Of a stretch of DNA of 64,000 nucleotides, positions 6,021 through 57,100 are shown one piece after another. The position numbers and the translations under genes are program-made. Source of the DNA: Pseudomonadota bacterium (GTDB lineage Bacteria; Bdellovibrionota_B; Oligoflexia; Oligoflexales; RGVZ01); NCBI GenBank assembly GCA_041178085.1, contig JBEGVZ010000114.1, positions 265 to 64,264 of the forward strand, given 5' to 3'. The notes below the pieces were generated by a model. That model saw nothing but the letters and a program-made list of their open reading frames with translations, made no database searches and had not been told where the DNA came from. Positions within the stretch are counted from its first letter, which is position 1; each line of letters opens with the position of its first letter.

Positions 6021-6172
6021 GCGATCAATCTCCTGCGAACTTTATTTGTTTGTCCCGTTGGGAAAAAACAACCTGTTGTTCTCAAGATTAGCACAGGAGA
6101 TTGCAAAAACAGGAAAGGCTGGTCTGACGGATTTTGATCTATCAGCCCAGCTTCTGAGTTGGAATCTTTAAA

Positions 6173-15295: not shown

Positions 15296-15374
15296 AGCTG
15301 TGATGTTAACAGCTTGCAATTTCCGGCCGGAGTCGGCAGGCTACGGAATAGCGATTTTATCGAAGGAGACTCGC

Positions 15375-15878
15375 ATGTTTTTCAAGAAGGTTTTCTCTGT
15401 TGCAGCAGTTGTAGTTGCTGTTGGAGTTGCGGCTTCCGGATGTACGGACGACAAGAAAAAGACTGCTGAAGCTGTCGCCGGCGGTTCTGGCGAACCTGCA
15501 GCACCTGGGTCGTCTGGCGACAGTGCCAAGACCATCGGTGGCGTGACCGTGAGCCCGGTTTATTTCAGCTTCGATGACTACACCGTCAGCTCCTCTTCCC
15601 AGTCCCAGCTGAACTCCATGGCGGAGCAGCTCAAGGCAAACCCGGGCACCGTGATCCAAATTGAAGGTCACTGTGACGAGCGCGGATCGATCGAATACAA
15701 CCTTGCCCTCGGTGAGCGCCGTGCTTCCGCGGTCAAGAGCTACCTGACCAACCTCGGCATTGAATCTGCTCGTCTTTCGACCATCAGCTACGGCGAAGAG
15801 CGCCCGGCCAACGACGGTCACACCGAAGACGCATGGCAGAAAAACCGCCGCGCGGAATTCAACGTAACCAAGCAATAA
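15375..15878 (+). CDS. pal: Peptidoglycan-associated lipoprotein (OmpA-domain)
   Basis: AAGGAG Shine-Dalgarno. MFFKKVFSVAAVVVAVGVAASGC lipobox. OmpA_C motifs GHCDERGSIEYNLALGERRA and NRRAEF. Confidence 0.9.
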   Translation: MFFKKVFSVAAVVVAVGVAASGCTDDKKKTAEAVAGGSGEPAAPGSSGDSAKTIGGVTVSPVYFSFDDYTVSSSSQSQLNSMAEQLKANPGTVIQIEGHCDERGSIEYNLALGERRASAVKSYLTNLGIESARLSTISYGEERPANDGHTEDAWQKNRRAEFNVTKQ

Positions 15879-15910
15879 CAAGCCTTCTGCCACCACGGTG
15901 GCCGAAAGCC

Positions 15911-15944
15911 AGGGGCCCGGGGGTTAAAACCCTTGGGCCTTTTA
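15911..15944 (+). terminator. Rho-independent terminator after pal
   Basis: GGCCCGGGGGTT / AACCCTTGGGCC stem (two G-U pairs) followed by TTTT. Confidence 0.6.
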
Positions 15945-16045
15945 CTTTTCCCCTGCCTTTAATGAATTGAAAAACCCCAATCGAAAAGATAACTTCGGTG
16001 TTCTGATCACTGCGTCCAGCCTGCGGGCTGTTGGAGGATACCGTT

Positions 16046-17614: not shown

Positions 17615-18441
17615 TGAGGATCCTTGCCATCGGCGACGTGATGGGCAAGGCCGGACGGCAGGCTTTGAGCCACTTCTTGCCTGGCCTTCGCCGCGAGTTG
17701 AATCCGGATGTCGTGCTCGTGAACGGCGAAAACGCAGCCGGCGGGTTCGGCCTCACGGAAAAAATCTACGACCAGTTCATCACCCAGATGGAAATCGATT
17801 GCATCACGATGGGCAACCACTGGCACGACAAGCGTGAGTTTGTTCGCTTCGCCGAGCAGGCCCCGCGGATGGTGCTGCCTGCCAACATGATGAACGTGAA
17901 CGACCCGTCCAAGGGCGTAAAGGTGTTGCGATCCCGCTCAGGCAAGGAATTTGCCGTCATGAACGTGATTGGCAAGGCTTTCATGCACCCCGACAACCAC
18001 TCGCCGTTTCCTTTCATCGAACGGATGCTGGATATGATTCCGGCCGCTGTGCGGGTCCGGATCCTTGATGTGCACGCAGAGGCAACCAGTGAGAAGCAAG
18101 GCATTGGCCAGCATCTGGCCGGACGCGTTTCGCTGGTATATGGCACGCACTCTCACGTACCAACTGCCGACGAGCGAATCATCGACAAGAAGACCGGCTT
18201 TATCACGGATCTGGGAATGACCGGTCCGTATGACTCCGTGATCGGAATCCGGAAAGAGGCCGCTATCAAACGGCTGATGACTGGTGAAAAACAAAACTTC
18301 CAGCCTGCAAGCGGTAACCGGTGGCTATGTGCCGTTGTGACGGACATTGACGAGTCTACCGGGCATTGCCAGCGTATTTCGCGCATCAGGCTTGAGTCTG
18401 AGGAAACAGACAAGGGTAAAGAAAGGGACGACGAACCATGA
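17614..18441 (+). CDS. ymdB: YmdB-family metallophosphoesterase (2',3'-cyclic-nucleotide phosphodiesterase)
   Basis: MRILAIGDVMGKAGR, VNGENAAGGFG and GNHWHD motifs. Start overlaps the rny stop (TGATG). Confidence 0.9.
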   Translation: MRILAIGDVMGKAGRQALSHFLPGLRRELNPDVVLVNGENAAGGFGLTEKIYDQFITQMEIDCITMGNHWHDKREFVRFAEQAPRMVLPANMMNVNDPSKGVKVLRSRSGKEFAVMNVIGKAFMHPDNHSPFPFIERMLDMIPAAVRVRILDVHAEATSEKQGIGQHLAGRVSLVYGTHSHVPTADERIIDKKTGFITDLGMTGPYDSVIGIRKEAAIKRLMTGEKQNFQPASGNRWLCAVVTDIDESTGHCQRISRIRLESEETDKGKERDDEP

Positions 18442-20117: not shown

Positions 20118-21491
20118 ATGATGGAACGACTTTCACTGGATCCCGCCTCGTGGTCGAAGACTGAATGGACGCAGACCAGCGGCTTCCTGATGGCGTTGGC
20201 AGCCGCCCTGAACGAGTCAGGCGTCGTTCCACAAAGGCATCTCGATGCCCTGCGCATGGACTTGTCCGCACTTCAGAGCGGCGGTGGTTCTGCACGGCAG
20301 GTGCCACCGCTCTTGACGCTGGCCAAGGCAGGCAACGAATTCCTCAAGCTAGTGGAGGCGCGCTACGGCCGTGACCGCTTGATCCTTAACCTGTTCCGGC
20401 ACAGTGCAAAGAGCTGGATTTCGGAAACGGCGCGGGTCCTTGCCAGGTGGGGTGAGCAGGTCACCCGGAATTCCGACAAGGTCCTGAATCGCATCCTGAT
20501 CATCCACCGCCCTGGCAACGAGCCTGCGGATGAACGTCTTTTCTCCAGCCTGCTGGTCGACTTTGCCACCCGGATCCGCGGTTGCCTTGACGCGCTGGAT
20601 GAACTCTACAAGCGACTTGATGCAATGCACGGTGTTCCCCTCGATGTCCCCGGACAATCGGGTGATGAACAAGGCGTAGCCGCCAAGCTGTCGTTTTCGT
20701 CACTGGCCAGCGACACAGAGCTCGGTCGTGAGGAGGAATATTTTGTCCGGCGCGTGGCCCTTGAAATGGCCAACCTTGCCGGTGCAGTGGCCCACTTCTC
20801 AAGCCAACTCGCCCTGAACTGTGATGAAGCACCCGCCGTGTTGCTTGAGCTTCGCAACAATTGGATCAAGACCGAAGCATTACGCCTGTTTCATTTTTCA
20901 TGGCCGGGAGCCGAAAGCTTTGTGACTGCCGAGGTCTCACGTCAGCAAGCCATGATGTCCCTGGCGTCCATCACCAATGCCCTGCTTGACCTGGAAGCTG
21001 AGACATCCGCCCTCATGCCGGGGAGAATCTCGGGTTCGCCAAACCCTGCCACCAGGCAACGCGCCGAGTCTGTCAGGGGCGCGTTGATTGCAGACGCAAT
21101 GGTCGCTGGTCTTGATGGGGACGAGGCGGCACGCGCCGTAGTCGCCATGGTCTCTTATGCAGAACGTCATAACCTTTCGTCTCGAGAGATGATCGTCAGC
21201 GAGTTGCAGAAAATCCACCCGGCCTTGATGCCCCGCACACTCCAGTACTTCCAGTCTCTGACGGAAAACGATCCTGTCGCGGGCAGGAAAGCCAGTGAGA
21301 AGTCCGATAGCGCGAGCCGCTCCCGCAACTTGCTGAACTACTTTGCAGAGAAGTCGCGAAGCCTCTCTGCCATGCTTGCATTGGCGCTCACGACCATAAC
21401 TTTCCTTGGCGGCTGCGGGCTAAAGACGGCAACCAGAAGCGACGTCGACGACCTTCGTCCGGGAATCCCATTCAGGACGAACCAAAAATGA
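20118..21491 (+). CDS. Degenerate argininosuccinate-lyase-fold (fumarate lyase superfamily) protein with lipobox-like C-terminal tail
   Basis: By-eye colinearity with E. coli ArgH, e.g. KRLD..PL and ADxxVA....SELQK in the C-terminal domain. SRND and GSSxMPxKxN signatures are not recognisable. Tail is LALALTTITFLGGCGLK. Confidence 0.6.
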   Translation: MMERLSLDPASWSKTEWTQTSGFLMALAAALNESGVVPQRHLDALRMDLSALQSGGGSARQVPPLLTLAKAGNEFLKLVEARYGRDRLILNLFRHSAKSWISETARVLARWGEQVTRNSDKVLNRILIIHRPGNEPADERLFSSLLVDFATRIRGCLDALDELYKRLDAMHGVPLDVPGQSGDEQGVAAKLSFSSLASDTELGREEEYFVRRVALEMANLAGAVAHFSSQLALNCDEAPAVLLELRNNWIKTEALRLFHFSWPGAESFVTAEVSRQQAMMSLASITNALLDLEAETSALMPGRISGSPNPATRQRAESVRGALIADAMVAGLDGDEAARAVVAMVSYAERHNLSSREMIVSELQKIHPALMPRTLQYFQSLTENDPVAGRKASEKSDSASRSRNLLNYFAEKSRSLSAMLALALTTITFLGGCGLKTATRSDVDDLRPGIPFRTNQK

Positions 21492-39372: not shown

Positions 39373-42039
<2,667 letters not shown>

Positions 42040-42084: not shown

Positions 42085-42492
42085 TTACTGGAACTTCAGC
42101 GGTAGCTGGTATTCGGCCACCGCACCCTTGATTCCCTGCCTGGTCGCAGAGACCTTCAGGACACCCACGTCCTGGGGAATTGGACTTTTGAATTGGCAGT
42201 CAAAGAAATCCTTGGCTGGCTTGCAGATGGCTTGAGCATTGTCTGAGCCAGAGTACTCGAGCTTCACCGAGGACTTCTTCACCAAAGGACTATTGAAGTT
42301 CAAGTCCAGCAGGAAAATCTTGAATGCTTTTTTATCACCGGCTGGCACCAGCTCCGTATGAAATGCGCCGGGCATGCGGACATGTCCGCCATTCGGTCCC
42401 GGCTTGCTTTCTCCGTGACCAAGGGCCTTGAACTCCATAATCAGAAAAATGAAGGGAAAAAATTTTTTAATTGCTGATTTTTGCCAGTACAT
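42085..42492 (-). CDS. Small periplasmic protein, paralog of the 43749-44201 product
   Basis: Start at MYWQKSAIKKFFPFIFLIMEFKALG|HGE (signal peptide). Shares an xPxGG...E(L/V)V..G...KI(F/Y) core with the other small ORF. Overlaps the OMF 3' end by 26 nt. Confidence 0.55.
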   Translation of the reverse strand: MYWQKSAIKKFFPFIFLIMEFKALGHGESKPGPNGGHVRMPGAFHTELVPAGDKKAFKIFLLDLNFNSPLVKKSSVKLEYSGSDNAQAICKPAKDFFDCQFKSPIPQDVGVLKVSATRQGIKGAVAEYQLPLKFQ

Positions 42493-43738
42493 GGGATTTC
42501 GCCACCTCGAAATTTTTTGTGATTTCCAGCCGATCGTGATGCATTTCAAAAAGCTTCTGGGAAGCCCCAAGAACGTCCGGAGAATTCTTCACGCCGCGGG
42601 CATATTCTGACTGGGTGCTCCGATAGTAACGTTCTGCACGGGCAATGTTTTGCTCTGCCTCGTGGACCTGTCCATGGAGGAAACGCAGCTGCGCGATTTC
42701 ATTTTCAAGATGCGCCAGTGTCTCTTGCTTTCCGGCTTCAGCCAACAAACGCCCTGCAGAACTGCGCGCGAGGAAGGCGCGAGACTCACGCACACCCTCC
42801 ATCCCGGCGGGCAAGTTCAGGGAGACGCTCACTCCAACTGTCGTTTCTGCGCCATTTTCGTTTTGGCGCGCATCGCCCAGATCCTTAGCGTCAGGCCAGG
42901 CAGGTTTCTCGTACTCAATATATGCATCGAAACGCGGCCACCACTCACGGCTACTCGCCGTGGCCATGAGGGCGTCCTCCTCGCTCTTGTAGGCATGGTC
43001 GGCAAAAAGATATTCAACCTGCTGGACATCAAATTTCACCTTATTCTCAAAATCATGATCGTGAGAAAGTTTGCTATCCACATCAACGGCTACGCCTTCA
43101 TCAAGGCCAAGATAAGTGCGTAACAGCCTCTTCTCTGCCCCGGATTGAACCGAGGTCAATGCAAGTTCCCGCTCAAGACTTGATTTGTGAATCTCAAATT
43201 CGAACCGGTCCGAGTCCGCTGCAACCCCGCTTTTTATTCTCCTCTGTGCCGCAAGGAGGTTTTGCTGGTTGAGGTCGATCATTTTCCTAAGGAGTGCTTC
43301 TCTCTCCTTCAGGTAAGCAATCTGCCACCAGGAAGAGGCCGCTTTTTCGACTTCAGTTACGATAACCCGGCGAACCGTCGCGGTGAGGCGCCTCAGAGCG
43401 ACTTCCCGCATCGAGTCGTCGATCCCGTCCCTGCCGCCCCTGAATAGGTTCACGCGGACATCCGCACCGATGAAAGGAGGCTCCGCCAATGAGAATCCGC
43501 CATCGTGCTTGGCCTTTCTACCTCCATGGAATCCCATTTCGGGCAGAAATGAACGCATCAGTGAGCCACGTCGTTCGGCTGCAGCGGCAACCTCGGCCTT
43601 GGCCGCGGCGACCGCCTTGTTGTTTGCATTGATGATAGCGCTGAGTTCGGAAACATCCCCGGATACAGTCTTTCCGGAAGCGCTGCCTCCGACCAACAAG
43701 CCCCAAAAGATAACTGCGACTGTTTGGATCCGACGCAT
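42467..43738 (-). CDS. TolC-like outer membrane efflux protein (OEP family)
   Basis: Signal peptide MRRIQTVAVIFWGLLVGGSASG. Two-repeat coiled-coil/beta pattern typical of CzcC/TolC-type OMFs. The ORF-track start at 43765 is TTG. Confidence 0.8.
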   Translation of the reverse strand: MRRIQTVAVIFWGLLVGGSASGKTVSGDVSELSAIINANNKAVAAAKAEVAAAAERRGSLMRSFLPEMGFHGGRKAKHDGGFSLAEPPFIGADVRVNLFRGGRDGIDDSMREVALRRLTATVRRVIVTEVEKAASSWWQIAYLKEREALLRKMIDLNQQNLLAAQRRIKSGVAADSDRFEFEIHKSSLERELALTSVQSGAEKRLLRTYLGLDEGVAVDVDSKLSHDHDFENKVKFDVQQVEYLFADHAYKSEEDALMATASSREWWPRFDAYIEYEKPAWPDAKDLGDARQNENGAETTVGVSVSLNLPAGMEGVRESRAFLARSSAGRLLAEAGKQETLAHLENEIAQLRFLHGQVHEAEQNIARAERYYRSTQSEYARGVKNSPDVLGASQKLFEMHHDRLEITKNFEVAKSHVLAKISN

Positions 43739-43748
43739 CTGGATCAGT

Positions 43749-44201
43749 TCACTTCCGTGGTTCAATGGTGAACGTCAAAATCTCAGTCCGGTTCGATTTC
43801 AATTCTGTTACGGAGAGTCTGAGGGTGTACCTGTGTGCGCCCTTTGCATCGTAGGAACCTTCAAACATATTTTCTGCCATGGAGAGTGAAACGACTTCTG
43901 ACTTCTTGCTTCTTGGCATGACTGCGGTCGCGTCGATCTTCAGGGTAGTTGCCGGGATTGGCTTCAGGTCATTGCCATAGACATAGATTTTTATGCTGGA
44001 GCCCTTTGACACAACTTCGACCTTCGAATCATCGAGGGATTTGATAATCCCTCCCTTCGGTGCCTTCACAGTCGTTGGGGCATCATGGTCGACTCCATTA
44101 TGAGCGCGGGTGGGTGAGGCGAACACCGACAGGGTGAGGATTAGCAAAGCCAACCCCGATTGCACCCTGACAGACATGTATTTCAGCAACACTTTGGTCA
44201 T
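43749..44201 (-). CDS. Small periplasmic protein (Ig-like/YtkA-like guess), unknown family
   Basis: ATGA overlap with the RND stop. Signal peptide ...LILTLSVFASPTRA|HNGVDHD. All-beta-looking sequence. Confidence 0.6.
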   Translation of the reverse strand: MTKVLLKYMSVRVQSGLALLILTLSVFASPTRAHNGVDHDAPTTVKAPKGGIIKSLDDSKVEVVSKGSSIKIYVYGNDLKPIPATTLKIDATAVMPRSKKSEVVSLSMAENMFEGSYDAKGAHRYTLRLSVTELKSNRTEILTFTIEPRK

Positions 44202-47200
44202 GGAAGTTCCTCGTCTCTTCTACTGGTGATCGAAGCCTCGGCGGCACGCTTTCCAAAACGATAAAACATGGCCGGAGTGACCACAACGTCAAGCAGTGTG
44301 GAGCTTAACAGTCCGCCCACAATCACCACGGCGACGGGGTGCAAGACCTCGCTCCCCGGTTCTCCCTTGGCGAAAACCAGCGGCAAGAGCGCCAGGGCGG
44401 TCACAGAAGCCGTCATCATGACCGGGACCAGCCTTTCCTGAGATCCTTTAATGATCATCTCGCGGGAAAAACCATGGCCCTCAAACCGCATCATGTGCAA
44501 GTAGTGGGATATCATCATGATGCCATTTCTGGACGCAACACCACAAAGGGTGATGAATCCCACGAGGCTTGCCACCGTTATGGACTCACCCGCAATAAAA
44601 AGCAGCGTGATCCCACCGATAAAAGCGAGAGGTATCGTCGCCATAACCTGGGCCGTGATAGCCTTGGACCTGAAATGGCCCATCAGCAGTAAAGCAATCC
44701 CCGCAAGTGAGACGAGGCTAAACACAAGGATATTTCTTGTGGCTGCCTGCTGGCTCTCGAATTGCCCCCCGTACTGAATGTAGAAGCCTTCTGGCAATTT
44801 GACCGCCGAATGGACTCTTGACCGGATTTCGTTGACAAGACCACCCAAGTCACGTCCCGACACGTTGGCGCTAATGACAATGCGACGCTGGCCGTTCTCG
44901 CGGTTTACTTCATTAGGTCCCATGGTTTCGTAGACATCTGCGACGAGGCCCAATGTGACCCGCTGGCCTGTCGGCATGACCTTGAGGACAGTCTTTTCCA
45001 TGTTCGCGATGCTGTCCCGCGACGTCTTGTCAAATTGGAAGAAGACGTCATACTGACGGTTTCCTTCCGTTATCTGCGCAACTTCTTCGCCGTTAAACGC
45101 AGCCTCAAGAAGCTTTGTCACTTCTCCAGCACTGAGGCCATATTTTGCTGCTTCATCGCGCAGAATGTGTACTTTGATCTGGGGCACCAGCGCTTGCTCT
45201 TCTACCCGCAAGTCGACCAAGCCCTTCACACCTGAAAGTGCGGCCTCAACTTCAATGGCCTTTTCCCGAAGCGTCGCAAGTTCAGGCCCAAATATCTTGA
45301 TGGCAATCGCAGCGTTTACCCCGGAGAGCATATGATCGATCAAGTGTGAAAGGGGTTGGCCGATGTTGACCCCGATGCCGGGATAGGCTTCCTTAAGACG
45401 CGCCCTGAGTTCATTCAAGACATCTTCCCGCGGGCGCCCACCAGGATGAAAATCAACATCGATCTCGCTGACGTGGACTCCGGCTGCATGTTCATCGAGC
45501 TCTGCCCGTCCCGTGCGCCTCGAAACCGATTTGATTTCGGGCGTAGCGAGCATCAGTTCTTCTGCTTTTAACCCAATCTTGTTGGACTCCGCCAAGCTGA
45601 TCCCAGGCGCCGACACGAGCGCAACCATGGCGGTTCCTTCGTTGAACTTCGGCAGGAAGTCGCGACCCATGAAGGGGACCAGGCTTGCCGCGACCACGAA
45701 AAGGAAGATCGAAGTACCAATGACAAGTTTGCTTCTTGGCAAGGCCCATTCGAGGACCTTCCGGTCGACGTTCTTCATCCATCTGACAAAGCCTGTTTCT
45801 CCGCGGCTCGTGGAATGAGACGGAAGGAAATATGCGCAAAGCGCTGGTGTCAGGGTGAGGGAAACGACAAGGGATGCGGCAAGGGCTGTCAGGTAGGCGA
45901 TCCCGAGGGGGGCGAATAACCTGCCTTCAAGGCCATCAAGGCTGAACAAGGGAATGAAAACGAGGGCGATGATTGCTGTTGCCAGTACGATGGAATTCCT
46001 GACCTCACTAGACGCATCAAAAATAACTGCGAGCCGCGGCCTTGGCGATGCCAGCGTACTGTTTTCACGGAGCCTCCGAAAAACATTCTCGACATCAACG
46101 ATAGAATCATCAACCAGCTCACCGATGGCAATCGCAAGGCCGCCCAGGGTCATGGTGTTGACCGTAAGCCCGAAGACATGGAAGACAATCGCGGTGACCA
46201 AAAAAGACACGGGTATTGCGGTCAAGGTAATAGCCGACATGCGCAGGTTCGCAAGAAAAACGAAGAGAACCAGGAAGACAAGCAGTGTGCCGGATTTAAG
46301 CTTCCGCGTGATGCCGTCGATTGACGCTGTGATGAAGTTTGCCTGTTTGAACACATCGGGATTGATGATGACACTGGCGGGGAGTGAGGGGCGCAGTTCA
46401 TCGATGGCCCGCGCGACTGCGCTGGTGATAGCGACCGTGTCGGCACCGGGCTGTTTTTGTATGGTCATGACCACCGATGGCTTGCCGTTGAAGCTGCCGT
46501 CTCCGCGCTTGAGCTGTGGCGCTTCCGCAACCTCCGCAATGTCCTGGACAAGGACGGGCCGCCCCAGGTGAAGGCCAACAAGGGTCTTTTTGATGTCGTT
46601 AATGTTTTCGACGACGCCGATATTGCGAACGAGATACTCCTGGGCATCTTTTTCAAGAAACCCACCGGTCGTGTTGCGACTGATCTGGGACAGTTCCTTG
46701 TCCACGCTCTCGATGGAGAGTTGATAGCGGTTCAGTTTTTCTGCGGAGACCATGATCTGGTATTGCTTGAGACCCCCACCGATGGAAATCACCTGGGCAA
46801 TGCCGGATATGGTCATCAGTCTGGGACGAAGGGTCCATTCCGCAATGTCTCGAAGGGCCATCGGTCCGATTGAGGGATCATCCGAGTAGACAGCGATTTG
46901 CTGGATCTGCCCCATAAGAGATCCCACTGGACCCATGACGGGGGCAGTTCCTGCAGGTAGTCTGTCCCGTGATAAATTTAGCTTCTCCTGGACAAGCTGG
47001 CGGTTGCGGTAGATGTCGGTACCCCACTGAAACTCAACGTAGATCACAGACAGACCAATTCCAGACTGAGACCGGATTCGATCAACGCCGGGCAAGCCGT
47101 TCAGGTGGGATTCCAAGGGGAATGTGACTCGGGTTTCGACCTCTTCCGGTGCCATGCCGTGAGCCTCTGTCATGACTGTGACAGTTGGCTTGGTGATGTC

Positions 47201-47320
47201 CGGAAAAACATCGACAGGGAGGCTTTTTGCGACGATCCCGCCGTAGACAGTTATCAGTGCCGCCAGGGCAACAACTGATAAACGGTGGTTGAGTGCAAAC
47301 CTTATGACGCGGTTCAGCAC
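44198..47320 (-). CDS. RND efflux permease, CusA/CzcA-like family
   Basis: About 1040 aa. N-terminus LPVDVFPDITKPTVTV...APEEVETRVTFPLE...GTDIYRNRQLVQEKL resembles CzcA/CusA. TM4 reads GGLAIAIGELVDDSIVDVEN. GTG 47320 lies 6 nt after GGAG. Confidence 0.9.
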   Translation of the reverse strand: MLNRVIRFALNHRLSVVALAALITVYGGIVAKSLPVDVFPDITKPTVTVMTEAHGMAPEEVETRVTFPLESHLNGLPGVDRIRSQSGIGLSVIYVEFQWGTDIYRNRQLVQEKLNLSRDRLPAGTAPVMGPVGSLMGQIQQIAVYSDDPSIGPMALRDIAEWTLRPRLMTISGIAQVISIGGGLKQYQIMVSAEKLNRYQLSIESVDKELSQISRNTTGGFLEKDAQEYLVRNIGVVENINDIKKTLVGLHLGRPVLVQDIAEVAEAPQLKRGDGSFNGKPSVVMTIQKQPGADTVAITSAVARAIDELRPSLPASVIINPDVFKQANFITASIDGITRKLKSGTLLVFLVLFVFLANLRMSAITLTAIPVSFLVTAIVFHVFGLTVNTMTLGGLAIAIGELVDDSIVDVENVFRRLRENSTLASPRPRLAVIFDASSEVRNSIVLATAIIALVFIPLFSLDGLEGRLFAPLGIAYLTALAASLVVSLTLTPALCAYFLPSHSTSRGETGFVRWMKNVDRKVLEWALPRSKLVIGTSIFLFVVAASLVPFMGRDFLPKFNEGTAMVALVSAPGISLAESNKIGLKAEELMLATPEIKSVSRRTGRAELDEHAAGVHVSEIDVDFHPGGRPREDVLNELRARLKEAYPGIGVNIGQPLSHLIDHMLSGVNAAIAIKIFGPELATLREKAIEVEAALSGVKGLVDLRVEEQALVPQIKVHILRDEAAKYGLSAGEVTKLLEAAFNGEEVAQITEGNRQYDVFFQFDKTSRDSIANMEKTVLKVMPTGQRVTLGLVADVYETMGPNEVNRENGQRRIVISANVSGRDLGGLVNEIRSRVHSAVKLPEGFYIQYGGQFESQQAATRNILVFSLVSLAGIALLLMGHFRSKAITAQVMATIPLAFIGGITLLFIAGESITVASLVGFITLCGVASRNGIMMISHYLHMMRFEGHGFSREMIIKGSQERLVPVMMTASVTALALLPLVFAKGEPGSEVLHPVAVVIVGGLLSSTLLDVVVTPAMFYRFGKRAAEASITSRRDEELP

Positions 47321-47515
47321 AGTCACTCCGAAGTCGGTAAATTTGCGGAAAGACTATCAATTCTTCGCGCTGAAGGCCAGCATTCGGCGTTTTAGCTGGC
47401 ACGGGTAAGATCGATTTATTTCCGGCTACCTTGGACAAACATTCAATCTTTGGCATTCCCAGAGATAGACACTTCCACAAGTTTCTTCAGCGCCGTTCGA
47501 CTGTAAGGAATCTCC

Positions 47516-47683
47516 CTACGAGGACGTTCCTCTTCCGCCGGCATCTGGCCGTTTTCGTCGCCTGCAAGCGTCCGAACAGTAGCGAACTTGCTCCCAGTCC
47601 CTCTCCCACTTCTTGCGCCAGGTAAACGGGCGATTGCAGGCTGCGCATACTTTCGTGGGCAGGTCCGATTTTTTCGTGCCCAT
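47516..47683 (-). CDS. DUF2256-like small zinc-ribbon protein (below the ORF-track length cutoff)
   Basis: Hand translation: [55 protein letters not shown]. The CxxC...WRKKW...YCSxxC pattern matches DUF2256. Confidence 0.6.
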
Positions 47684-47768: not shown

Positions 47769-49034
47769 TTAAAGATCGAAAAATGCGAGCGCGTGAATGA
47801 GACTCTCGCGCGGGATATTCAAGGCAGGAGTAAGTGACAGTGAAGTTCCGCCGGAACCAGAAGCAAGCGCGATCACTCCGCGGCACCGCAACACATCCAT
47901 CGCTACGGCCCCAGGTGCTGAGCCAGCGGATTCGTGGAACTTGATTGCAAGCATCAGACCACCGCCCCAGCGAATTTCCTCAATGCGCGGATCCTTTTCA
48001 TATTTGAGCTGAAGCTCTTGGTAAAGCCAGGCCCCGGTTTCGCTTGCCATCTTGCAGGCATCGATTCGTTTCATTTCACGTAGCGATGCCGTTGCCACAG
48101 CGCAAGAGAGGGGATGTCCAAAAAAGGTTCCCGTATGAATCGCCTCACCTGTGCTTTTGGGCCAGGCCGACATGACCTCCTCTGTTCCAGCGCAGGCCGA
48201 GAGCGGCATCCCACCGCCCAGGGCTTTGCCAAAGCAAACAAGATCTGCGTCAACCACGTCTGCCTCGGTCCACTTGCCGCGACGACCCAGACCCGTAAGG
48301 ATTTCATCCAAAATCAAGACGCCGCGCTGTTGATGAGCAAGGCCGGCAAGTTCGCGAAGCCAGCCTTTTGGTGGATTAATGACACCGCCACGGCCTTGCA
48401 CAGGTTCGGCGATGATGCCTGCAAAACCACAGGGCATCGCTTGGAGCGTCCGCATCGCGTCAACAATTAACCCACTGTCACAACCATAAGGCAATTCGAT
48501 CGCCACTCGCTCGCAAAGGTATTTGCTGAATGGCTTTTTGAAGTCACTGCGTGAGGTGACTGGCAGTACACCCAGGTCCACTCCGTGGTACCCGTCCTTG
48601 AAGCAAATAAATCCTGCGCAATCCGTCTTTAGCATGGCGGTCTTGAGGGCCACTTCGATTGCCTGGCCGCCCGAGATGGCAAGTGAAATCCGTGACAACC
48701 TCGACGGCAACACAGAACGCAGTTCTTCAATCAGCTCAATTTTTGACCGGGACGGATAAACGTCCCCCATGCCGTGGGCGATGGGGAAGAAATCTGCACC
48801 TGCATAACGCCCAAAGACTTCTCTGACAACGGCCGGGTTATGTCCAAGGGCAAGCGCGCCAAAACCAGCACAAAGGTCGACATATGCACGGCCTTCGACA
48901 TCGCGGATGATTGATCCAGTTCCTGATTCAAAGACAAGAGGATTGGCATCGGCGGAAACCGGATAGGTCGCGTCGTGGCACTCAAGGGCCATCAAGCGGG
49001 ACATCCATGCGGCATTGGTTTCCGTTTTCTTCAT
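47769..49034 (-). CDS. Class III (ornithine/GABA-type) PLP aminotransferase
   Basis: GYHG, ILDEILTGLGRRGKW and the FGKALGGGMPL (PLP Lys) motifs. Confidence 0.85.
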   Translation of the reverse strand: MKKTETNAAWMSRLMALECHDATYPVSADANPLVFESGTGSIIRDVEGRAYVDLCAGFGALALGHNPAVVREVFGRYAGADFFPIAHGMGDVYPSRSKIELIEELRSVLPSRLSRISLAISGGQAIEVALKTAMLKTDCAGFICFKDGYHGVDLGVLPVTSRSDFKKPFSKYLCERVAIELPYGCDSGLIVDAMRTLQAMPCGFAGIIAEPVQGRGGVINPPKGWLRELAGLAHQQRGVLILDEILTGLGRRGKWTEADVVDADLVCFGKALGGGMPLSACAGTEEVMSAWPKSTGEAIHTGTFFGHPLSCAVATASLREMKRIDACKMASETGAWLYQELQLKYEKDPRIEEIRWGGGLMLAIKFHESAGSAPGAVAMDVLRCRGVIALASGSGGTSLSLTPALNIPRESLIHALAFFDL

Positions 49035-49675
49035 ACGCCTTTGGCCCGCGGATGCCAGATGTACTTGTGCATTTGCAGTTGCATGCGACCCGGAGCCTTG
49101 GCCTCAATCATCCAATCGGCAAGGTCCTTTGGCGGCACCAGCCCAAAGGCGCAGGAAAAGAGAACCCCGCAGCGGGTGTCGAGGCGATTTTTACGGACGA
49201 CATCAAGGGCCCAGTCAAAATCGTCGCGGTTTGAAACAACAAACTTGATTTCGTCCGTCGCCTTGAGGAAATCCAGGTTGGCCCAGAGGTTTCTATCTGC
49301 CATGCCACTTCCGGGGCACTTTAAGTCCATGATGACATGAACTTCACGTGGGATATCGGCGATCGATTCCGAGCCACCCGTCTCGATCATCACCCGGTAG
49401 TCCTGATCGACCAGTTTTTGCATGAGCGGGATCACGCCTTTTTGGGCGAGGGGCTCGCCGCCAGTCAGCTCGACGTGTTTCAATTGAAATTCAGCAACTT
49501 TGGCAAGGACCTCATCTTCCGTGAAGTCCTTCCCCCCCTCAAACCCATAAGCTGTGTCGCACCAGCGGCACCGGAGCGGACAGCCCGTCAGGCGGACAAA
49601 GACGCATGGGAAGCCGCTAAAGGCAGCCTCGCCTTGAATGCTCGCGTAAATCTCTGTAATCCTTAGGGGACTCAT
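49031..49675 (-). CDS. queE: 7-carboxy-7-deazaguanine synthase (radical SAM)
   Basis: LRITEIYASIQGEA...FVRLTGCPLRCRWCDT (CxxxCxxC variant typical of QueE). Start moved to MSPLRI. Confidence 0.9.
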   Translation of the reverse strand: MSPLRITEIYASIQGEAAFSGFPCVFVRLTGCPLRCRWCDTAYGFEGGKDFTEDEVLAKVAEFQLKHVELTGGEPLAQKGVIPLMQKLVDQDYRVMIETGGSESIADIPREVHVIMDLKCPGSGMADRNLWANLDFLKATDEIKFVVSNRDDFDWALDVVRKNRLDTRCGVLFSCAFGLVPPKDLADWMIEAKAPGRMQLQMHKYIWHPRAKGV

Positions 49676-49692
49676 TTTTCTGGAGCGCCGCC

Positions 49693-50646
49693 TTGCCGAG
49701 TGATTCTGGACACCAGCCAAACCAGCCCGTCCAGCTGGTAAGTTCCTCGGAGCTTCTAGTCCAAGCGGTCCAAGCTTTCAAGTCAGGCAACCTGCAAAGC
49801 CTTGGCCTTGCTGGATTTGGCGTCTTCTTACCCCAGATTCTATCGACCTGGCTGCTGGCTCCGGCATCGCACCAGGCGGCGGGAAACATCTGGTCCGCAG
49901 CCCTGGACGTAAAAAAGGGCGCCGCGATCGATGGTTCGACCTTTCCGGGAATTTTGGGTCAAGCGGCTGAATTTTATAGGCTTTTCGGTTTTATCAACCT
50001 CCTCTTGTGGCTTGTATTCACGGCGGCTTACCTGGCCATGCTGTACCAAAGCCTTCACCACATGCGCCCTTGGGCGTTTCCACGGCTCAGCCTGAGGGAG
50101 CTTCTCGGGGACATGGTGCGTCTAACGCTCAAGCGGGGCATTCTGCTGGCAGCGCTGGTTGTATCGCTTTGCTTTTTACTCACGGCATTTTTGACATCAC
50201 TGGGCTTTGGCAACCAGGCGGACGGTCTGATCTCCCTCTTTGTGATCCCTCTTTCCCTCATGGCGCCCGTCCTGATGGTAGCGGAGCACAAAAGCGCGCT
50301 GCGCAGCCTGACCCATGCTTTGACCTTACGCTATGCCCGCCGGGTGGCGTTTGGCGGTGCTTCTGCTGTTCTCAGCCTGGTGACAATTTTCGGATTATTT
50401 TTCTGCATTGAATACCTGTTCTCATGGATTGGGTCTGAAGCTCTCGACTGGTTTGCCACTGGCACGCCTCAGTTCCTTGCAATGGCCTTGCCCGGCATGC
50501 CGTTCAGCGTGGGTTTTGCTCTGGTTGACCTGGTCCAATCCATGCTCACGACGAGCATGATTTGTCTACTGCCGGGCGCCACCGCTGCGCTTTACATTCA
50601 GGTTCACTTTCGCAATTCAAGGCGTGATCTCTCGATCCTTGCCTGA
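49693..50646 (+). CDS. Polytopic membrane protein, unknown function
   Basis: Several hydrophobic helices. TTG start only 17 nt from the divergent queE start, so the start is uncertain. Confidence 0.55.
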   Translation: MPSDSGHQPNQPVQLVSSSELLVQAVQAFKSGNLQSLGLAGFGVFLPQILSTWLLAPASHQAAGNIWSAALDVKKGAAIDGSTFPGILGQAAEFYRLFGFINLLLWLVFTAAYLAMLYQSLHHMRPWAFPRLSLRELLGDMVRLTLKRGILLAALVVSLCFLLTAFLTSLGFGNQADGLISLFVIPLSLMAPVLMVAEHKSALRSLTHALTLRYARRVAFGGASAVLSLVTIFGLFFCIEYLFSWIGSEALDWFATGTPQFLAMALPGMPFSVGFALVDLVQSMLTTSMICLLPGATAALYIQVHFRNSRRDLSILA

Positions 50647-51299
50647 AGAGCGCTGAATTGGTTTGGCTGCGGGCCGAAGGCCTGTTCGCCGAAGTGCCCT
50701 AGAACATGCCCAGCCAAGCCGCGTAAAAGACAAGCCTCCACTGACGCCACAGAGATACCGCGTCCGATTTCAGCGAGTCCTGTTAAAAAACTTCCATGGG
50801 CACGCCCGCGCCTGTATCCAGGCTCACGACTTGGGTGGGCAAGGTACTTTGAGATCATCGGCCGGTCACAATCGATGATCAGCGATGCCTGATAAAGCAA
50901 ATAGTTTCGACTGCGAAAGAGCGACGTCCCACCGAATTTCATGTCGCCGGCAACGAGGTCGCTGATCCCTGCTTCGCCCAAAATTGCGTCGAAAGCGAAT
51001 CCAGCATGGAGGCAGGAGTTGACGGCGCTGTTAAGGAGGCGAAAGTAGCGGTCGTTGTGAAAGTGCTCGGTTACCCACATACCGAGGCTTACGATCACAC
51101 AGCCCGGGTAAAGGACGACCGTCCCTCCGCCACCATAGCGTTTCAGTACTGGAACACCGTCGGACAAACACGCAGGGAGGTTGCATTCGACTGCAGGATC
51201 ATTGCTGCTCCCGCAGACGACAACCGTTTCCCTGGGCACCCAAACGTCGATAACCAGAGGACGGTCATGCCGCTCAAGAATGTGGTCATCAATCCACAA
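50604..51299 (-). CDS. Biotin/lipoate A/B protein ligase family protein (LplA/LipM-like)
   Basis: VVVCGSSND...VPVLKRYGGGGTVVLYPGC pattern of the BPL_LplA_LipB domain. TTG start lies immediately after the mgtE stop. Confidence 0.7.
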   Translation of the reverse strand: MWIDDHILERHDRPLVIDVWVPRETVVVCGSSNDPAVECNLPACLSDGVPVLKRYGGGGTVVLYPGCVIVSLGMWVTEHFHNDRYFRLLNSAVNSCLHAGFAFDAILGEAGISDLVAGDMKFGGTSLFRSRNYLLYQASLIIDCDRPMISKYLAHPSREPGYRRGRAHGSFLTGLAEIGRGISVASVEACLLRGLAGHVLGHFGEQAFGPQPNQFSALQARIERSRLELRK

Positions 51300-52826: not shown

Positions 52827-53855
52827 TTAGCGGCAGGCTTTTTCAAGGGTTTCGCTGGTTGCTGCATGGCGCTGCTTGTTTTCGCCGAGCCATGCCATAA
52901 AAGCCTTGAGCTTCGCAGGTTCCGCAGGAATCAGGGGACAATCGAAATCGGTCGAGTCATAAAGCGTTGCAGCAAGAACCTCGGCGTTATTCCAGGTTCG
53001 CCCACCAACCCGGTCCTGCCCCTTGAAAGTTGGCTTTCCGGTTCCTGTGAACGCTGCGAACACTTCCGCCTTGCGCAGGACTAAATCATTTGGGGGCAGG
53101 GTCGACACGTATAACTTTTCCAATTCGCGGCGGAGAGCGTGAAGCCAGACGCCAAATGTGCGCGTATCTGCCAGGTCAACTTTGTAGGCCTCGATGGCCG
53201 CATCGTCCTTGATCCGGGCAAGCCAGGCCACCGTCATGCGACGAGCCAGCACTTCGGCAAGGCGCTCATTGAATGTCGTGCCACCTTCAATCCAAACAGT
53301 ACGGTGGACGAGTTCATGAAAGATCAGATGGGCAAAATCGTCGCGGGACCTGCGGGTCATCGACCGGTAAACGGGGTCTGGAAGGAAACCCAGAAGGGAA
53401 TAGCCCGTCGCCGTGCCACGGGCCGTGTCGTAGCCTTTTTTCTTGAGTGCCGCCTCTTCCTCGTCACGGGCCTTCTTGTCGAAAAAACCCAGATAGGGAA
53501 CCCGCCCAACCAGGGGGAACCACCAGGTGATGGATTCCAGACGATCTGGTTTCGCCGCGTATACCAACCATGAAAGCGGCCGATCACCGTTGTCGATATA
53601 CCGGCGGTAAGAACTGCCAGGGGTCAGTCCACATTCACGGGCAAATTCCAGAATCCCGGCAAGGTCCGTCAACCGTTCACGGACGGAAGGTGGCGTCTCA
53701 GGTTTGGCAAGGACTTCAGAAATGTCCTCGCGGGAACCAAGGAGCTTACCCTGTTCCCATGCGAGCCGGCTGACATAACATCCTGAAAGCCCACTTGCGG
53801 CAAGGGCCGCAGCGGCGACAAAAAAAATACGGCTGCTGGCACAAAAGGCCTTCAC
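52827..53855 (-). CDS. Predicted aminopeptidase lipoprotein (COG4324-like)
   Basis: LSGCY lipobox, VPYLGFF, GYSLLGFLPDPV, and HELVHRTVW...FNERLAE (HExxH). 4-nt overlap with ileS. Confidence 0.65.
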   Translation of the reverse strand: MKAFCASSRIFFVAAAALAASGLSGCYVSRLAWEQGKLLGSREDISEVLAKPETPPSVRERLTDLAGILEFARECGLTPGSSYRRYIDNGDRPLSWLVYAAKPDRLESITWWFPLVGRVPYLGFFDKKARDEEEAALKKKGYDTARGTATGYSLLGFLPDPVYRSMTRRSRDDFAHLIFHELVHRTVWIEGGTTFNERLAEVLARRMTVAWLARIKDDAAIEAYKVDLADTRTFGVWLHALRRELEKLYVSTLPPNDLVLRKAEVFAAFTGTGKPTFKGQDRVGGRTWNNAEVLAATLYDSTDFDCPLIPAEPAKLKAFMAWLGENKQRHAATSETLEKACR

Positions 53856-56800
53856 GCCCTTGCCAGCCAGATCTCGACCTCGCCACCGTCGAGGCTGAAT
53901 TTTTGATGATCCGGCCCCATGACTGCCGACAGATCCTGTGGTCCCGGGGCTGGCTCCATCAACACAGCAAGGGTTTCGTCTGCGATGTAAGCGTGGAAAT
54001 CGCGCAGCGCATCCACCGCACGTCCACTTGCCGCGTACCTGACTTTGATGCGGTCGCTGACGTTAAGTCCCGATTCCTTGCGCATGCGCTGAATCCGGTT
54101 GATCAGTTCACGGGCAAGCCCCTCACGCAGAAGCTCCTCAGATAAACGGGTATCAAGCAGAACCGTGACACCCTTCTCCGTTGCAATGAGGCGGTCGTCC
54201 TTGGGGCCCCGTTCAATCAGGAAGTCCTCTTCAGACAGAGAGAAACCAGCGACCGTGACACTGCCCGATGTTTCGAGATCTCGCAGAAGGGCCGCCACGT
54301 CGTCGTGACTTGCAGTGATTTTTTCCAGGGCCACGCGCACTGTATTTAACTGCCCCCCCAGACGCTTACCCAGAGTCCGCAGGTTTGGCTTCACGCCGAG
54401 ACGGACAAAACGCGCTTCGTCCGTGGAGAAATCAATCGCCTTGATGTTGAGTTCCTGGCGGATGGTGGCTGCGCCCGCTTCAATGATGCCGTGGTCGCCC
54501 TCATTCCGGGTGATGACCTGGATCGACGGCAACACCTGGCGGGTTTTGATCTGGTGTTTGGCCCGAAGGCTGCGGCCAAGGTTTGTGACCCGGCGCACAA
54601 GCGCCATGCGCTCCTCAAGGTCCTTGTCAATCAAGCGTTCCACCGGCATCGGCATGTCAGTCAAGTGCACAGAAGCTGGCGCGCTGGAAAGACCATGGGT
54701 AAGGTTCTCGAAGATGCGCTCAGAAACAAACGGGGCAAACGGCGCAAAAATCTTTGAGAACTCGCACAGCACGTGGAACAACGTTGCATAGGCGAGAGGA
54801 TCGCCTTTTTCGCCACCCGCGTTGGCACCGGAACTGCCGTCCATGACAGCGCTACCTTCGTCTTCATCAGTGCTGGCAGCACCACCCCAAAAGCGGCGGC
54901 GGCTCAGACGAATGTACCAGTTGGTGAGGTCTTCAATGAAGTCGATCACCAGCGGGATCACAGCGTAAAGGTGGTAGCGCTCCATTTGCTGGTGAACGCC
55001 GGCGGCAAGGGACTGAAGGCGTGACAAGATCCAGCGGTCGAGCTCATCCACGGCAGCCGGCGCCTTGCCGGCGGCAAGAGACGCCTCGGGTTTCCAGCCA
55101 TCTGCGGCGGCATAGGTGGCAAGGAAGCTGTGAGCGTTCCAAAGCGGTAACAGAACCGCCCGGGTTGTCTCAAGGACCCCACGGTCAGAGAAGATCAAGT
55201 CCTCCCCACGCAAAATGGGGGAATTCAGCATGTAAAGGCGAACACTGTCGGCGCCGTACTTTTCCAGCAGATCCTCTGGTGGTGTGTAGTTCCGGTGACG
55301 CTTTGACATCTTGCGCCCTGTCTCGTCGCAGATGATGCCGTTGACGACGACGTTTTTGAAGGCGGGGCGATTGAACAGCGCCGTTGAAAGGACTGACAGC
55401 GTATAAAACCAGCCACGCGTCTGGTCCAGACCTTCCGCGATGAAATCTGCAGGAAAAACGTGCTCAAAACGATCTTTGTTCTCGAACGGATAGTGCAATT
55501 GAGCGTAGGGCATCGATCCGGACTCAAACCAGCAGTCGAACACTTCGGGAACCCGGCGCATCTTTGATTTACAGGCAGGGCATTCGACTTCGAGGTCGTC
55601 GATGAAATGCTTGTGCAGGTCGTCAATTTTTTTGCCGGTCGCCCTCTCAAGTGAAGGGACGTCACCAAAGACACGGACGTGGGCTGGATCCGTGCGGCAT
55701 TCCCAGATGGGCAGGGGGGTTCCCCAGAAACGGTTGCGGCTGATGGCCCAGTCGCGTGCATTTTCAAGCCACTTGCCCATGCGTCCGTCTTTGAGGTGGC
55801 CGGGCACCCAGTTGATTTTCTGGTTGTTGGCAACCAGATCCTTGTTCAATTTCTCAACGGCCACATACCAGGCCGGGATTGCCCGGTAGATGAGAGGTGT
55901 GTCCGTGCGTTCGCAGAATGGATAGCTGTGGACCAGGACGTCCTGCTTGTAGAGTTTTCCTTCAGCCTTGAGGCGCTTGATGATTTCCTTGTCGGCGTCC
56001 TTGCAAAACTGACCGGCATACTCGGCAATTTGCGGACGGAAACGTGCTTCTTCATCAAGCGGATCAACGAGTTCGATGCCCCCTTTGCGACACACCCGAA
56101 AGTCGTCTTCTCCGTACGCGGGGGCTTGATGGACGATTCCGGTGCCGTCTTCAGTGGTCACATACGCGTCGGCAAAGACGCAGAACGAATTTGCCTGATC
56201 CTTGAAATAGGAAAAAAGGGGCTCGTAGGATTTTCCGGCGAGCTGGCTTCCCTTGACCGTTTCCAGAACTTCAAATGGCTCGGCAGTCTCGCCTTTTTGT
56301 TTCTTGAAATAAGCAGGAAGACGCGCCTCCGCCAGCCAAAGAATCTCGCCCGAGGATTTTTCACGGACCTTGACGTAGTCGATATCGGGACCAACAGCCA
56401 ATGCGAGGTTTGAAATCAAAGTCCAAGGCGTCGTCGTCCACGCAAGAAAAAATCCGTCTTCGCCCCTGAGTTTGAACTTTACGGTGATGGCCGGATCCTG
56501 GACGTCCTTGTAATTTTGATTGGCCTCGAAGTTTGACAAGACGGCCGTGATACGCGGCGAATAGGGCACGACTTTATAGTCGCGGTAAACGAGTCCTTTT
56601 TCATAAAGCTGAGTGAACACCCACCAGACCGATTCCATGAACGACTTGTCCATTGTCCGGTACTGGTTTTTCCAGTCGACCCAGCGCCCAAGGCGCGTGA
56701 TGGTTTTTTCCCACTCTTTTGCGTAATGGAGTACGGAGCTGCGGCACTCCTCGTTGAATTTGGCGACACCCATGGCGAGGATGTCGGTACGGCCTTTCAG

Positions 56801-57100
56801 TTTGTCACGCTTTTCGATTTCGTATTCGACCGGAAGCCCGTGGCAATCCCAGCCAAACCTGCGTTCGACCTTGAAGCCGCGCATGGTCCAATAACGGGGA
56901 ACCGTGTCCTTCAGGGTGTTTGCCAGCAGGTGTCCATAGTGGGGCAGGCCATTGGCAAACGGCGGGCCGTCGTAAAACGCAAATTCAGGAGCCTTGGCCC
57001 GGTGATCCAACGATGCCTTGAAGGTCTGACCTTTTTCCCAGGCAGCCAAAACCTCCCGCTCAAGCTGGGGAAAACTGACATCTGATCCGGCAACTTTCAT
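53852..57100 (-). CDS. ileS: Isoleucine--tRNA ligase (type 2, eukaryote-like form)
   Basis: PPFANGLPHYGHLL (HIGH) and KMSKRHRN (KMSKS). 1082 aa with the long C-terminal region typical of type 2 IleRS. Confidence 0.95.
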   Translation of the reverse strand: MKVAGSDVSFPQLEREVLAAWEKGQTFKASLDHRAKAPEFAFYDGPPFANGLPHYGHLLANTLKDTVPRYWTMRGFKVERRFGWDCHGLPVEYEIEKRDKLKGRTDILAMGVAKFNEECRSSVLHYAKEWEKTITRLGRWVDWKNQYRTMDKSFMESVWWVFTQLYEKGLVYRDYKVVPYSPRITAVLSNFEANQNYKDVQDPAITVKFKLRGEDGFFLAWTTTPWTLISNLALAVGPDIDYVKVREKSSGEILWLAEARLPAYFKKQKGETAEPFEVLETVKGSQLAGKSYEPLFSYFKDQANSFCVFADAYVTTEDGTGIVHQAPAYGEDDFRVCRKGGIELVDPLDEEARFRPQIAEYAGQFCKDADKEIIKRLKAEGKLYKQDVLVHSYPFCERTDTPLIYRAIPAWYVAVEKLNKDLVANNQKINWVPGHLKDGRMGKWLENARDWAISRNRFWGTPLPIWECRTDPAHVRVFGDVPSLERATGKKIDDLHKHFIDDLEVECPACKSKMRRVPEVFDCWFESGSMPYAQLHYPFENKDRFEHVFPADFIAEGLDQTRGWFYTLSVLSTALFNRPAFKNVVVNGIICDETGRKMSKRHRNYTPPEDLLEKYGADSVRLYMLNSPILRGEDLIFSDRGVLETTRAVLLPLWNAHSFLATYAAADGWKPEASLAAGKAPAAVDELDRWILSRLQSLAAGVHQQMERYHLYAVIPLVIDFIEDLTNWYIRLSRRRFWGGAASTDEDEGSAVMDGSSGANAGGEKGDPLAYATLFHVLCEFSKIFAPFAPFVSERIFENLTHGLSSAPASVHLTDMPMPVERLIDKDLEERMALVRRVTNLGRSLRAKHQIKTRQVLPSIQVITRNEGDHGIIEAGAATIRQELNIKAIDFSTDEARFVRLGVKPNLRTLGKRLGGQLNTVRVALEKITASHDDVAALLRDLETSGSVTVAGFSLSEEDFLIERGPKDDRLIATEKGVTVLLDTRLSEELLREGLARELINRIQRMRKESGLNVSDRIKVRYAASGRAVDALRDFHAYIADETLAVLMEPAPGPQDLSAVMGPDHQKFSLDGGEVEIWLARA

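Follow-up and report, generated by a model that had tools for sequence, protein, structure and literature searches.

Genes of the operon

The 64-kb stretch of DNA analysed in the present work (from contig JBEGVZ010000114.1 of assembly GCA_041178085.1), which is referred to below as the window, carries on its minus strand, between positions 42085 and 47326, four tightly packed open reading frames (ORFs) which encode, in this order, a permease of the resistance-nodulation-division (RND) type, a small protein A, a TolC-like outer-membrane factor (OMF) and a second small protein B. The permease gene lies at 44198-47326 (1042 amino acids from the GTG at 47326), although homologs suggest that its true start is at 47320 rather than 47326; the gene for A lies at 43749-44201 (150 amino acids), that for the OMF at 42467-43738 (423 amino acids from the ATG at 43738; 43765 is the alternative boundary) and that for B at 42085-42492 (135 amino acids from MYWQ). 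An earlier reading of the same DNA (the original prediction) had described this four-gene order, and all four ORFs are present where it placed them. The stop codon of the permease gene overlaps the ATG of A by 4 nt (ATGA), A and the OMF gene are separated by about 10 nt, and the end of the OMF gene overlaps the start of B by 26 nt, so that the junctions leave no space for a lost gene.

Absence of an adaptor gene in cis

Heavy-metal RND genes normally adjoin their own adaptor gene. Neither the 64-kb window nor the surroundings of the operon in 33 related loci, read out to about 10 kb (in complete genomes, about 10 kb to either side), yielded an adaptor gene; the canonical tripartite arrangement, in which the adaptor is encoded with the pump, was found neither in the window nor in any of these loci. 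A hidden Markov model of the adaptor core, which was built from 115 adaptors of the nearest adaptor-containing relatives and which detects Escherichia coli CusB with an E-value of 1e-21 and an Acetobacter adaptor with an E-value of 1e-6, returned nothing better than E 0.2 when applied to all ORFs of at least 50 amino acids in the window and 30 related loci. AcrA, MdtA, MacA, EmrA, CusB and four heavy-metal efflux (HME) adaptors, used as queries, had no match among 2811 ORFs (569 kb), no HlyD-type Pfam family was detected in 22 further mid-size ORFs of the window, and six-frame ORF searches revealed no adaptor fragment. The observation in the original prediction that the 64 kb contain no gene for a membrane-fusion protein therefore holds by Pfam, by the adaptor-core model and by the nine adaptor queries.

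Neither A nor B can be recognized as a divergent adaptor: the lipoyl, beta-barrel and membrane-proximal domains of membrane-fusion proteins were found in neither protein, whether by profile or among the 50 best fold matches, and the sole feature which the two share with adaptors is an N-terminal histidine motif. In the literature searched, there was no paper on adaptor-less RND operons of Bdellovibrio, no later work on the heavy-metal pump NieA and no functional RND pump able to export across the outer membrane with no adaptor.

Conservation of the arrangement in related loci

A genome scan for A returned 26 loci, the majority of them in records that bear the label Bdellovibrionota or Oligoflexales, with other or generic labels in three cases. 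Four of the loci are on complete Bdellovibrio chromosomes (CP168972, CP178621, CP178622 and CP168974), and the same arrangement is present in these isolate genomes and in about 30 independent assemblies. The order RND-A-OMF was observed in all 30 loci first examined, as far as the contigs reach, with permeases 60-77% identical to that of the window, and A sits between the RND and OMF genes wherever a contig covers both neighbours. More distant A-like proteins, in the loci L038, L039 and L040, again follow an RND gene with no adaptor nearby, and L039 has the RND gene and A without an adjoining channel gene. The nearest relative, L048, contains the complete operon of RND, A, OMF and B, with B in the same position as in the window. 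The synteny survey proposed with the original prediction accordingly finds that both the linkage of small protein A to the pump and the absence of an adaptor are maintained in related loci.

When the flanking ORFs were clustered, only RND, A and OMF proved to be common to at least 30 loci, the next most frequent being small Cys/His-rich proteins encoded upstream, and no conserved mid-size gene emerged that might be an unrecognized adaptor. The adaptor-less permeases group together in a single clade of a neighbour-joining tree, and this clade is sister to the adaptor-containing permeases.

The permease

The permease matches the Pfam family ACR_tran with 873 bits and the NCBIfam model TIGR00914 (CusA/CzcA) with 789 bits, against a cut-off of 701, which places it among the heavy-metal efflux RND proteins, whereas the multidrug RND models score far under their own cut-offs. 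Its best matches among solved structures are ZneA (485 bits) and CusA (470 bits), as compared with 234 bits for AcrB. The fourth transmembrane segment (TM4) contains the proton-relay motif GELVDDSIVDVEN at residue 402, as the original prediction had read it, and the permease carries two histidine motifs, HAAGVH (residue 613) and HLIDH (residue 661). The resulting cluster of H613, H618, H661 and H665 occupies the place of the CusA methionine triad: M573, M623 and M672 of CusA align to A, V and H in the permease, and most of the relay methionines are replaced as well, so that the methionine triad and relay pairs of a CusA-type (HME4) Cu(I)/Ag(I) pump are not found in this alignment. The histidine motifs are instead those that define, at the proximal site, the NieA-like pumps (HME5, or "class 6"; PMC7060636), and the exact forms HAEGVH and HRLDH occur in the pumps of L040, Magnetospirillum and Variovorax. 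Judged by its sequence, then, the permease is a heavy-metal RND protein of the CusA/CzcA family belonging to the NieA-like clade, and is neither AcrB-like nor CusA-like. The original prediction had held that no substrate class could be assigned; this has been answered in part, in that the family and the clade can now be named.

Alignment with the adaptor-partnered homolog from Magnetospirillum (51% identity) shows no insertion or deletion of four or more residues, and there is therefore no structural compensation in the permease for the absent adaptor.

The outer-membrane factor

The channel protein is a member of the TolC family, with two OEP repeats (Pfam, 96 bits over two stretches of its 423 residues), and its signal peptide lacks a lipobox cysteine. 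Its alignment with CusC and with the OMFs of adaptor-containing sister operons runs from end to end, and the proteins are of equal length, but its identity with the sister-operon OMFs is only 11-16%, as against 21-45% with those of related loci. The motif EYARGVKNSPDVL is kept in all five Bdellovibrio-type OMFs aligned. Near the C-terminal helical region, the OMFs of the window and of L001, L004, L008, L033 and L040 read EY(A/S/K)RGVK(N/T)S(P/G)D(V/M)L, while CusC and the sister-operon OMFs have at this position the usual sequence of the G-x-x-S-x-L-x-x-L type; this conserved region might be a contact point for a partner. On the evidence of these sequence comparisons, the Bdellovibrio-type clade appears to have recruited its OMF from a lineage unrelated to that of the sister-operon OMFs.

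The small proteins A and B

Protein A begins with a predicted signal peptide followed by the putative mature N-terminus HNGVDHD. It has no family in Pfam (E up to 1) or NCBIfam, but 92 close homologs were collected, in which H34, G36, H39, D40, H123, R124 and Y125 are invariant and the mature N-terminus has the consensus HEGHDHDAPTT.KAPKGG. Its charged motifs ELPRSKK, YDAKGAHRY and C-terminal EPRK are absent from the A-like proteins of Diaphorobacter and Variovorax. The AlphaFold2 model of A (mean predicted local distance difference test score, pLDDT, 84.7) is a single beta-sandwich of about 115 residues, whose best match in the PDB by Foldseek is Helicobacter pylori CrdA (E 2e-4, target TM-score 0.67-0.72). 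A is probably a periplasmic metal chaperone.

Protein B likewise has a predicted signal peptide, a putative mature N-terminus HGESKPGPNGGH and, by alignment, two conserved cysteines, and it too lacks a family in Pfam (E up to 1) or NCBIfam. Its 26 homologs share the invariant positions H26, G27, E28, P31-P33, M40, H45, E47, C90 and C99 and a start of the form HGEDKPGPNGG.(I/V)RMPGAFHTELV, and a C-terminal histidine tail is often present. The AlphaFold2 model (mean pLDDT 84.7) is again a beta-sandwich with CrdA as the best Foldseek match in the PDB (E 1e-3, target TM-score 0.67-0.72). In Leptospira kobayashii, in one Bdellovibrionales bin and in one Bdellovibrio bin, B-type proteins adjoin MerR regulators and P1B ATPases; they are general metal-homeostasis proteins.

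The original prediction had judged A and B to be paralogous by eye. BLASTP detects no similarity between them, but a profile-profile comparison of their mature parts with hhalign gives a probability of 93.6% and an E-value of 2e-7 (96.8% with the signal peptides included), and both this comparison and their common best structural match support a remote paralogy. A profile search of 1.8 billion representative proteins retrieved 290 clusters with E up to 1e-3, so that the superfamily comprises at least 290 clusters at 50% identity; among the 150 matches listed, nearly all are stand-alone proteins of 125-150 amino acids with the same start, and many match both family profiles. Some members (P0254, 265 amino acids; P0257, 247; P0179, 219) depart from this pattern, in that some are tandem duplications of the A-like domain, while in P0179 the C-terminus of an RND permease reads through into an A-like domain.

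For both proteins, CrdA is followed among the fold matches by FetP and then, lower, by PcoC/CopC, and the modelled structures of A and B have the CopC-type beta-sandwich. Their sequences do not place them in the CopC/PcoC/CrdA family, as judged by Pfam (E up to 1) and by PDB sequences, against which the two family profiles have no match. CusF is absent from the 50 best fold matches of A and from those of B, and no Pfam match to it was found either, so the fold comparison of both AlphaFold models which the original prediction had proposed leads to CrdA and not to CusF.

The residue before the first histidine is A, G or S in 88 of 91 members of family A and in all 23 members of family B for which it was scored, and in the wider superfamily A, G or S stands at position -1 in 119 of the 137 representatives with an early histidine; the median position of the first histidine is 22. 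Cleavage by signal peptidase that leaves histidine as residue 1 would fit the -1/-3 rule, the conserved histidine standing directly behind a putative site of the AXA type, and is a reasonable expectation from these sequences. The suggestion in the original prediction that histidine would come first after cleavage is reasonable on these grounds, an invariant histidine with a -1/-3 fit being present in nearly all members; in A and B more His, Asp or Glu residues come after it. CopC proteins bind Cu(II) through an amino-terminal histidine, and a CopC-type amino-terminal histidine metal site in A and B is plausible from their models.

Related operons and known systems

NieA of Cupriavidus neocaledonicus, an HME5 or proposed "class 6" RND protein with the motifs HAEGVH and HRLDH, is encoded in the operon nieIC-cep-nieBA (PMC7060636). 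Plasmid-borne relatives of the permease, with 48-52% identity, are found in Magnetospirillum, Hymenobacter, Variovorax, Diaphorobacter, Azospirillum and Cupriavidus, and the gene contexts of four of these (Hymenobacter, Variovorax, Diaphorobacter and Magnetospirillum) were read. In the first three, the order is TolC, cep (a hypothetical protein of 196-208 amino acids), adaptor (370-391 amino acids) and permease; on plasmid II of Magnetospirillum sp. XM-1 (L035, 6351-7994), cep is fused to the adaptor in a protein of 547 amino acids that consists of a signal peptide, HGGEDH, a beta domain, two hydrophobic segments, a second HGGEDH and the adaptor core. More than 100 proteins of this long cep-adaptor type were found, in records labelled Rhodospirillales and Magnetococcales where named. 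The adaptors of Hymenobacter and Diaphorobacter start with HGGEDHGDA or GEGHDHGDAP.

Of the four sister operons read, all of which have an adaptor, two (those of Variovorax and Diaphorobacter) encode an A-like protein of 128-131 amino acids directly after the permease, and these proteins match the superfamily profile with 41.7 bits (Variovorax) and 57.7 bits (Diaphorobacter) over most or all of their length. The cep proteins, which have a C-terminal membrane anchor and no family in Pfam, in NCBIfam or among PDB sequences, score 22.9 (Diaphorobacter), 19.9 (Hymenobacter) and 1.7 bits (Variovorax) against the same profile, so those of Diaphorobacter and Hymenobacter may be counted as weak members of the superfamily; all three match the N-terminal domain of the long adaptors (1e-14 to 1e-25), and A itself matches that domain by profile-profile comparison with a probability of 69% and an E-value of 4e-5. 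Copper genes lie near two of the sister operons: the Hymenobacter locus contains a multicopper oxidase, a four-helix-bundle copper protein and HMA-domain proteins, and the Diaphorobacter locus contains PCuAC, P1B ATPases and HMA-domain proteins.

The window operon thus resembles the nie-type operons in its pump clade, in the TM4 sequence GELVDD.(I/V)VDVEN (with the exception of Diaphorobacter, which has GGLVDDAVVGVEN), in the motifs HA(E/A)GVH and H(R/L)(L/I)DH, and in the exported small proteins of the same superfamily that accompany the pump. It differs in gene content and order, which here are pump, A, channel and B with no cep or adaptor, and there are channel, cep, adaptor and pump, with an A-like gene added in Variovorax and Diaphorobacter; the nieC-cep-nieB-nieA operon is not present in the window, and no cep gene was found in the window or in the 33 related loci.

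With E. coli CusCFBA, the operon shares a heavy-metal RND pump, an outer-membrane channel and, within the operon, a gene for a small periplasmic metallochaperone (here a probable one), but CusCFBA includes the adaptor CusB, for which there is no counterpart here, and A, V and H stand in the place of the methionine triad of CusA. The chaperone of that system, CusF, is a small protein of the Met/His/Trp type whose fold is different from that of A and B. The best structural matches of A and B are CrdA (PDB 9ll2 and 9ll4) and CopC/PcoC, yet the identity is only 10-12%, and A and B have few methionines and an invariant N-terminal histidine cluster, while CrdA, a CopC-family periplasmic copper protein of the crdA-crdB-czcB-czcA RND system, has no histidine and a Met-rich loop (PMC9182242); the CrdA operon also retains an adaptor, czcB, which the present operon does not. 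A precedent for the coupling of pump and channel outside the canonical adaptor architecture is provided by Borrelia BesABC, whose adaptor BesA lacks the alpha-hairpin but keeps the lipoyl, beta-barrel and membrane-proximal domains (PMC3807786). BesA is nevertheless a recognizable adaptor, whereas no adaptor domain is encoded here.

Neighbouring genes

Downstream of the operon, valS ends at 42039 and is convergent to it. On the other side, an ORF of 55 amino acids at 47516-47683 on the minus strand, between an aminotransferase gene and the RND gene, encodes a small Cys-rich, zinc-finger-like protein of the Pfam family DUF2256 (6e-22), and the region 47769-51299 contains genes for a class III aminotransferase, a QueE-like radical SAM enzyme, an unannotated protein of 314-317 amino acids (on the opposite strand) and a lipoate-protein ligase. 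These neighbours occur in identical order in L048 (1-3105), which marks the operon as a stably kept part of the chromosome in this lineage. Two further candidates in the window were considered and rejected: the 1082-amino-acid ORF at 53852-57100 and its neighbour of 342 amino acids are a class I aminoacyl-tRNA synthetase and an aminopeptidase rather than a second pump and adaptor, and the ORF at 20118-21491, which an adaptor query matched with a phmmer E-value of 0.09, has a short alignment of 9.6 bits and no family match.

The related loci have neighbours of their own. In most of L001 to L033, a gene of 106-156 amino acids lies just upstream of the RND gene (L008, 5228-5608; L001, 6420-6797; L015, 4145-4540); its product starts with a hydrophobic segment, is rich in Cys and His in the middle and ends in a conserved motif, (L/I)(E/D)GPFQPPRA or KPWQPPRA. 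No family for these small upstream proteins came from Pfam, NCBIfam or PDB sequences, and they have no counterpart in the window or L048. In L009 (6363-6752), and equivalently in L011, L012 and L014, the gene upstream of the pump encodes an extremely His-rich exported protein of 129 amino acids with repeats such as HKHGENCGHA and HTHGANCGHA. In L004, a 3-Mb contig, a divergent gene for a metal repressor of the CsoR/RcnR type stands beside the operon (6112-6453), and about 1.5 kb downstream (13215-18115) genes for an integrase, AlpA, a primase-polymerase and a DUF3987 protein suggest a nearby mobile element.

Interpretation

The locus is best explained as an operon for heavy-metal efflux, of the copper type, in a Bdellovibrio-like bacterium, with a NieA-like RND permease at its core. 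With moderate confidence, a mechanism can be proposed in which A and B would bind periplasmic metal, presumably copper, at their amino-terminal histidine site and would pass it on to the pump, at the histidine cluster of its periplasmic cleft; the pump would then use the proton gradient to export the metal by way of the co-encoded channel, and A would be a functional analogue of CusF or CrdA and not an adaptor. The metal is most likely Cu(II) or Cu(I), because of the copper genes in the sister loci, the CsoR/RcnR-type repressor in L004 and the CrdA/CopC-like fold of the small proteins, with nickel or zinc less likely. Pump and channel are most likely joined by an adaptor encoded elsewhere in the genome, direct docking being the less likely arrangement.

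The original prediction had presented the two small proteins as standing in the operon instead of an adaptor. This is doubtful: A-like proteins coexist with adaptors in Variovorax and Diaphorobacter, B-type proteins lie beside P1B ATPases, and neither protein is adaptor-like. Since A-like proteins follow the pump in the adaptor-containing operons of those two genera, comparison of the sequences makes it more likely that A is an older accessory inherited by the pump clade than that it is a replacement acquired with the loss of the adaptor. What is special to the Bdellovibrio-type clade is that cep and the adaptor have been lost from the operon and that an unrelated OMF lineage has been recruited.

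Several observations weigh against the explanation as a copper operon with its adaptor encoded in trans. Sites rich in histidine and carboxylate also suit Ni(II), Zn(II) and Co(II), and NieA itself has been proposed to be a nickel pump; the binding of metal by A and B is moreover a predicted property, as it is for any member of the superfamily. The adaptor is absent in cis from all 34 loci, which would be unusual if an adaptor were still required, and the operon keeps the channel gene but not the adaptor gene, which is the reverse of the usual pattern of sharing.

A truly adaptor-less pump, in which A, alone or with B, is a minimal coupling protein that clamps or gates a direct contact between pump and channel and so replaces the membrane-fusion protein, is unlikely. 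The order RND-A-OMF with tight or overlapping junctions in every sufficiently long locus, the grouping of the adaptor-less pumps into a single clade sister to the adaptor-containing ones, and flanks that share no other gene family all speak for it. The distant relationship of A to cep and to the N-terminal domain of the long adaptors also favours a coupling role, as do the highly conserved charged motifs that are missing from the A-like proteins of Diaphorobacter and Variovorax, but A is a beta-sandwich of some 115 residues with no adaptor-like domain by sequence or predicted fold, and its relatives coexist elsewhere with normal adaptors. Similarly, the channel belongs to a lineage different from that of the sister operons, but both pump and channel are of ordinary length, with no extra domains that could bridge the periplasm, and the literature searched offers no functional RND pump of this kind. 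The more specific proposal that the Bdellovibrio-like pump and channel work without a membrane-fusion protein and that A is a minimal coupling or gating factor derived from the "cep" or N-terminal module of ancestral adaptors is a shade more doubtful still.

It is improbable that pump and channel are uncoupled, such that the RND protein and A move metal from the cytoplasm or inner membrane into the periplasm, or only between periplasmic carriers, while the channel acts separately or with another partner. The absence of an adaptor in cis is consistent with such an arrangement, and the distant locus L039 has the RND gene and A with no adjoining channel gene, but in every other locus whose contig extends past A the channel gene is present and translationally coupled. 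The faster evolution of the channels as compared with the pump (21-45% as against 54-77% identity) also speaks for it; metal released into the periplasm would nevertheless afford little protection, and the heavy-metal RND pumps of known structure, CusA and ZneA, act in tripartite complexes. Finally, the origin of the window in a metagenome-assembled genome raises the question of a mis-assembly, a pseudogene or an uncalled gene in a single contig, an artefact which is refuted by the same arrangement in complete genomes of Bdellovibrio isolates and in the independent assemblies, by gene junctions that are too tight and by six-frame searches that contain no adaptor fragment.

Significance

According to the prevailing view, no tripartite RND pump can dispense with a periplasmic adaptor, which has to open the outer-membrane channel and hold it. 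In the present case, pump and channel stay together throughout a clade whose operon has dropped the adaptor gene, and since culturable Bdellovibrio strains carry this operon, the requirement for an adaptor is directly testable; absence of an adaptor from the complete genomes, if true, would sharply raise the weight of the finding. The locus is a NieA-type heavy-metal RND operon without an adaptor across a whole lineage, accompanied by an uncharacterized family of His-tipped, CopC-like proteins. That family forms part of a large and uncharacterized superfamily of exported His-first proteins. Its members are linked with RND pumps, with P-type metal ATPases and, in the form of a fused or anchored module, with adaptors. 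Such a distribution suggests a periplasmic metal relay that is based on histidine, unlike the methionine relay of the Cus system, and that is used with several kinds of exporter.

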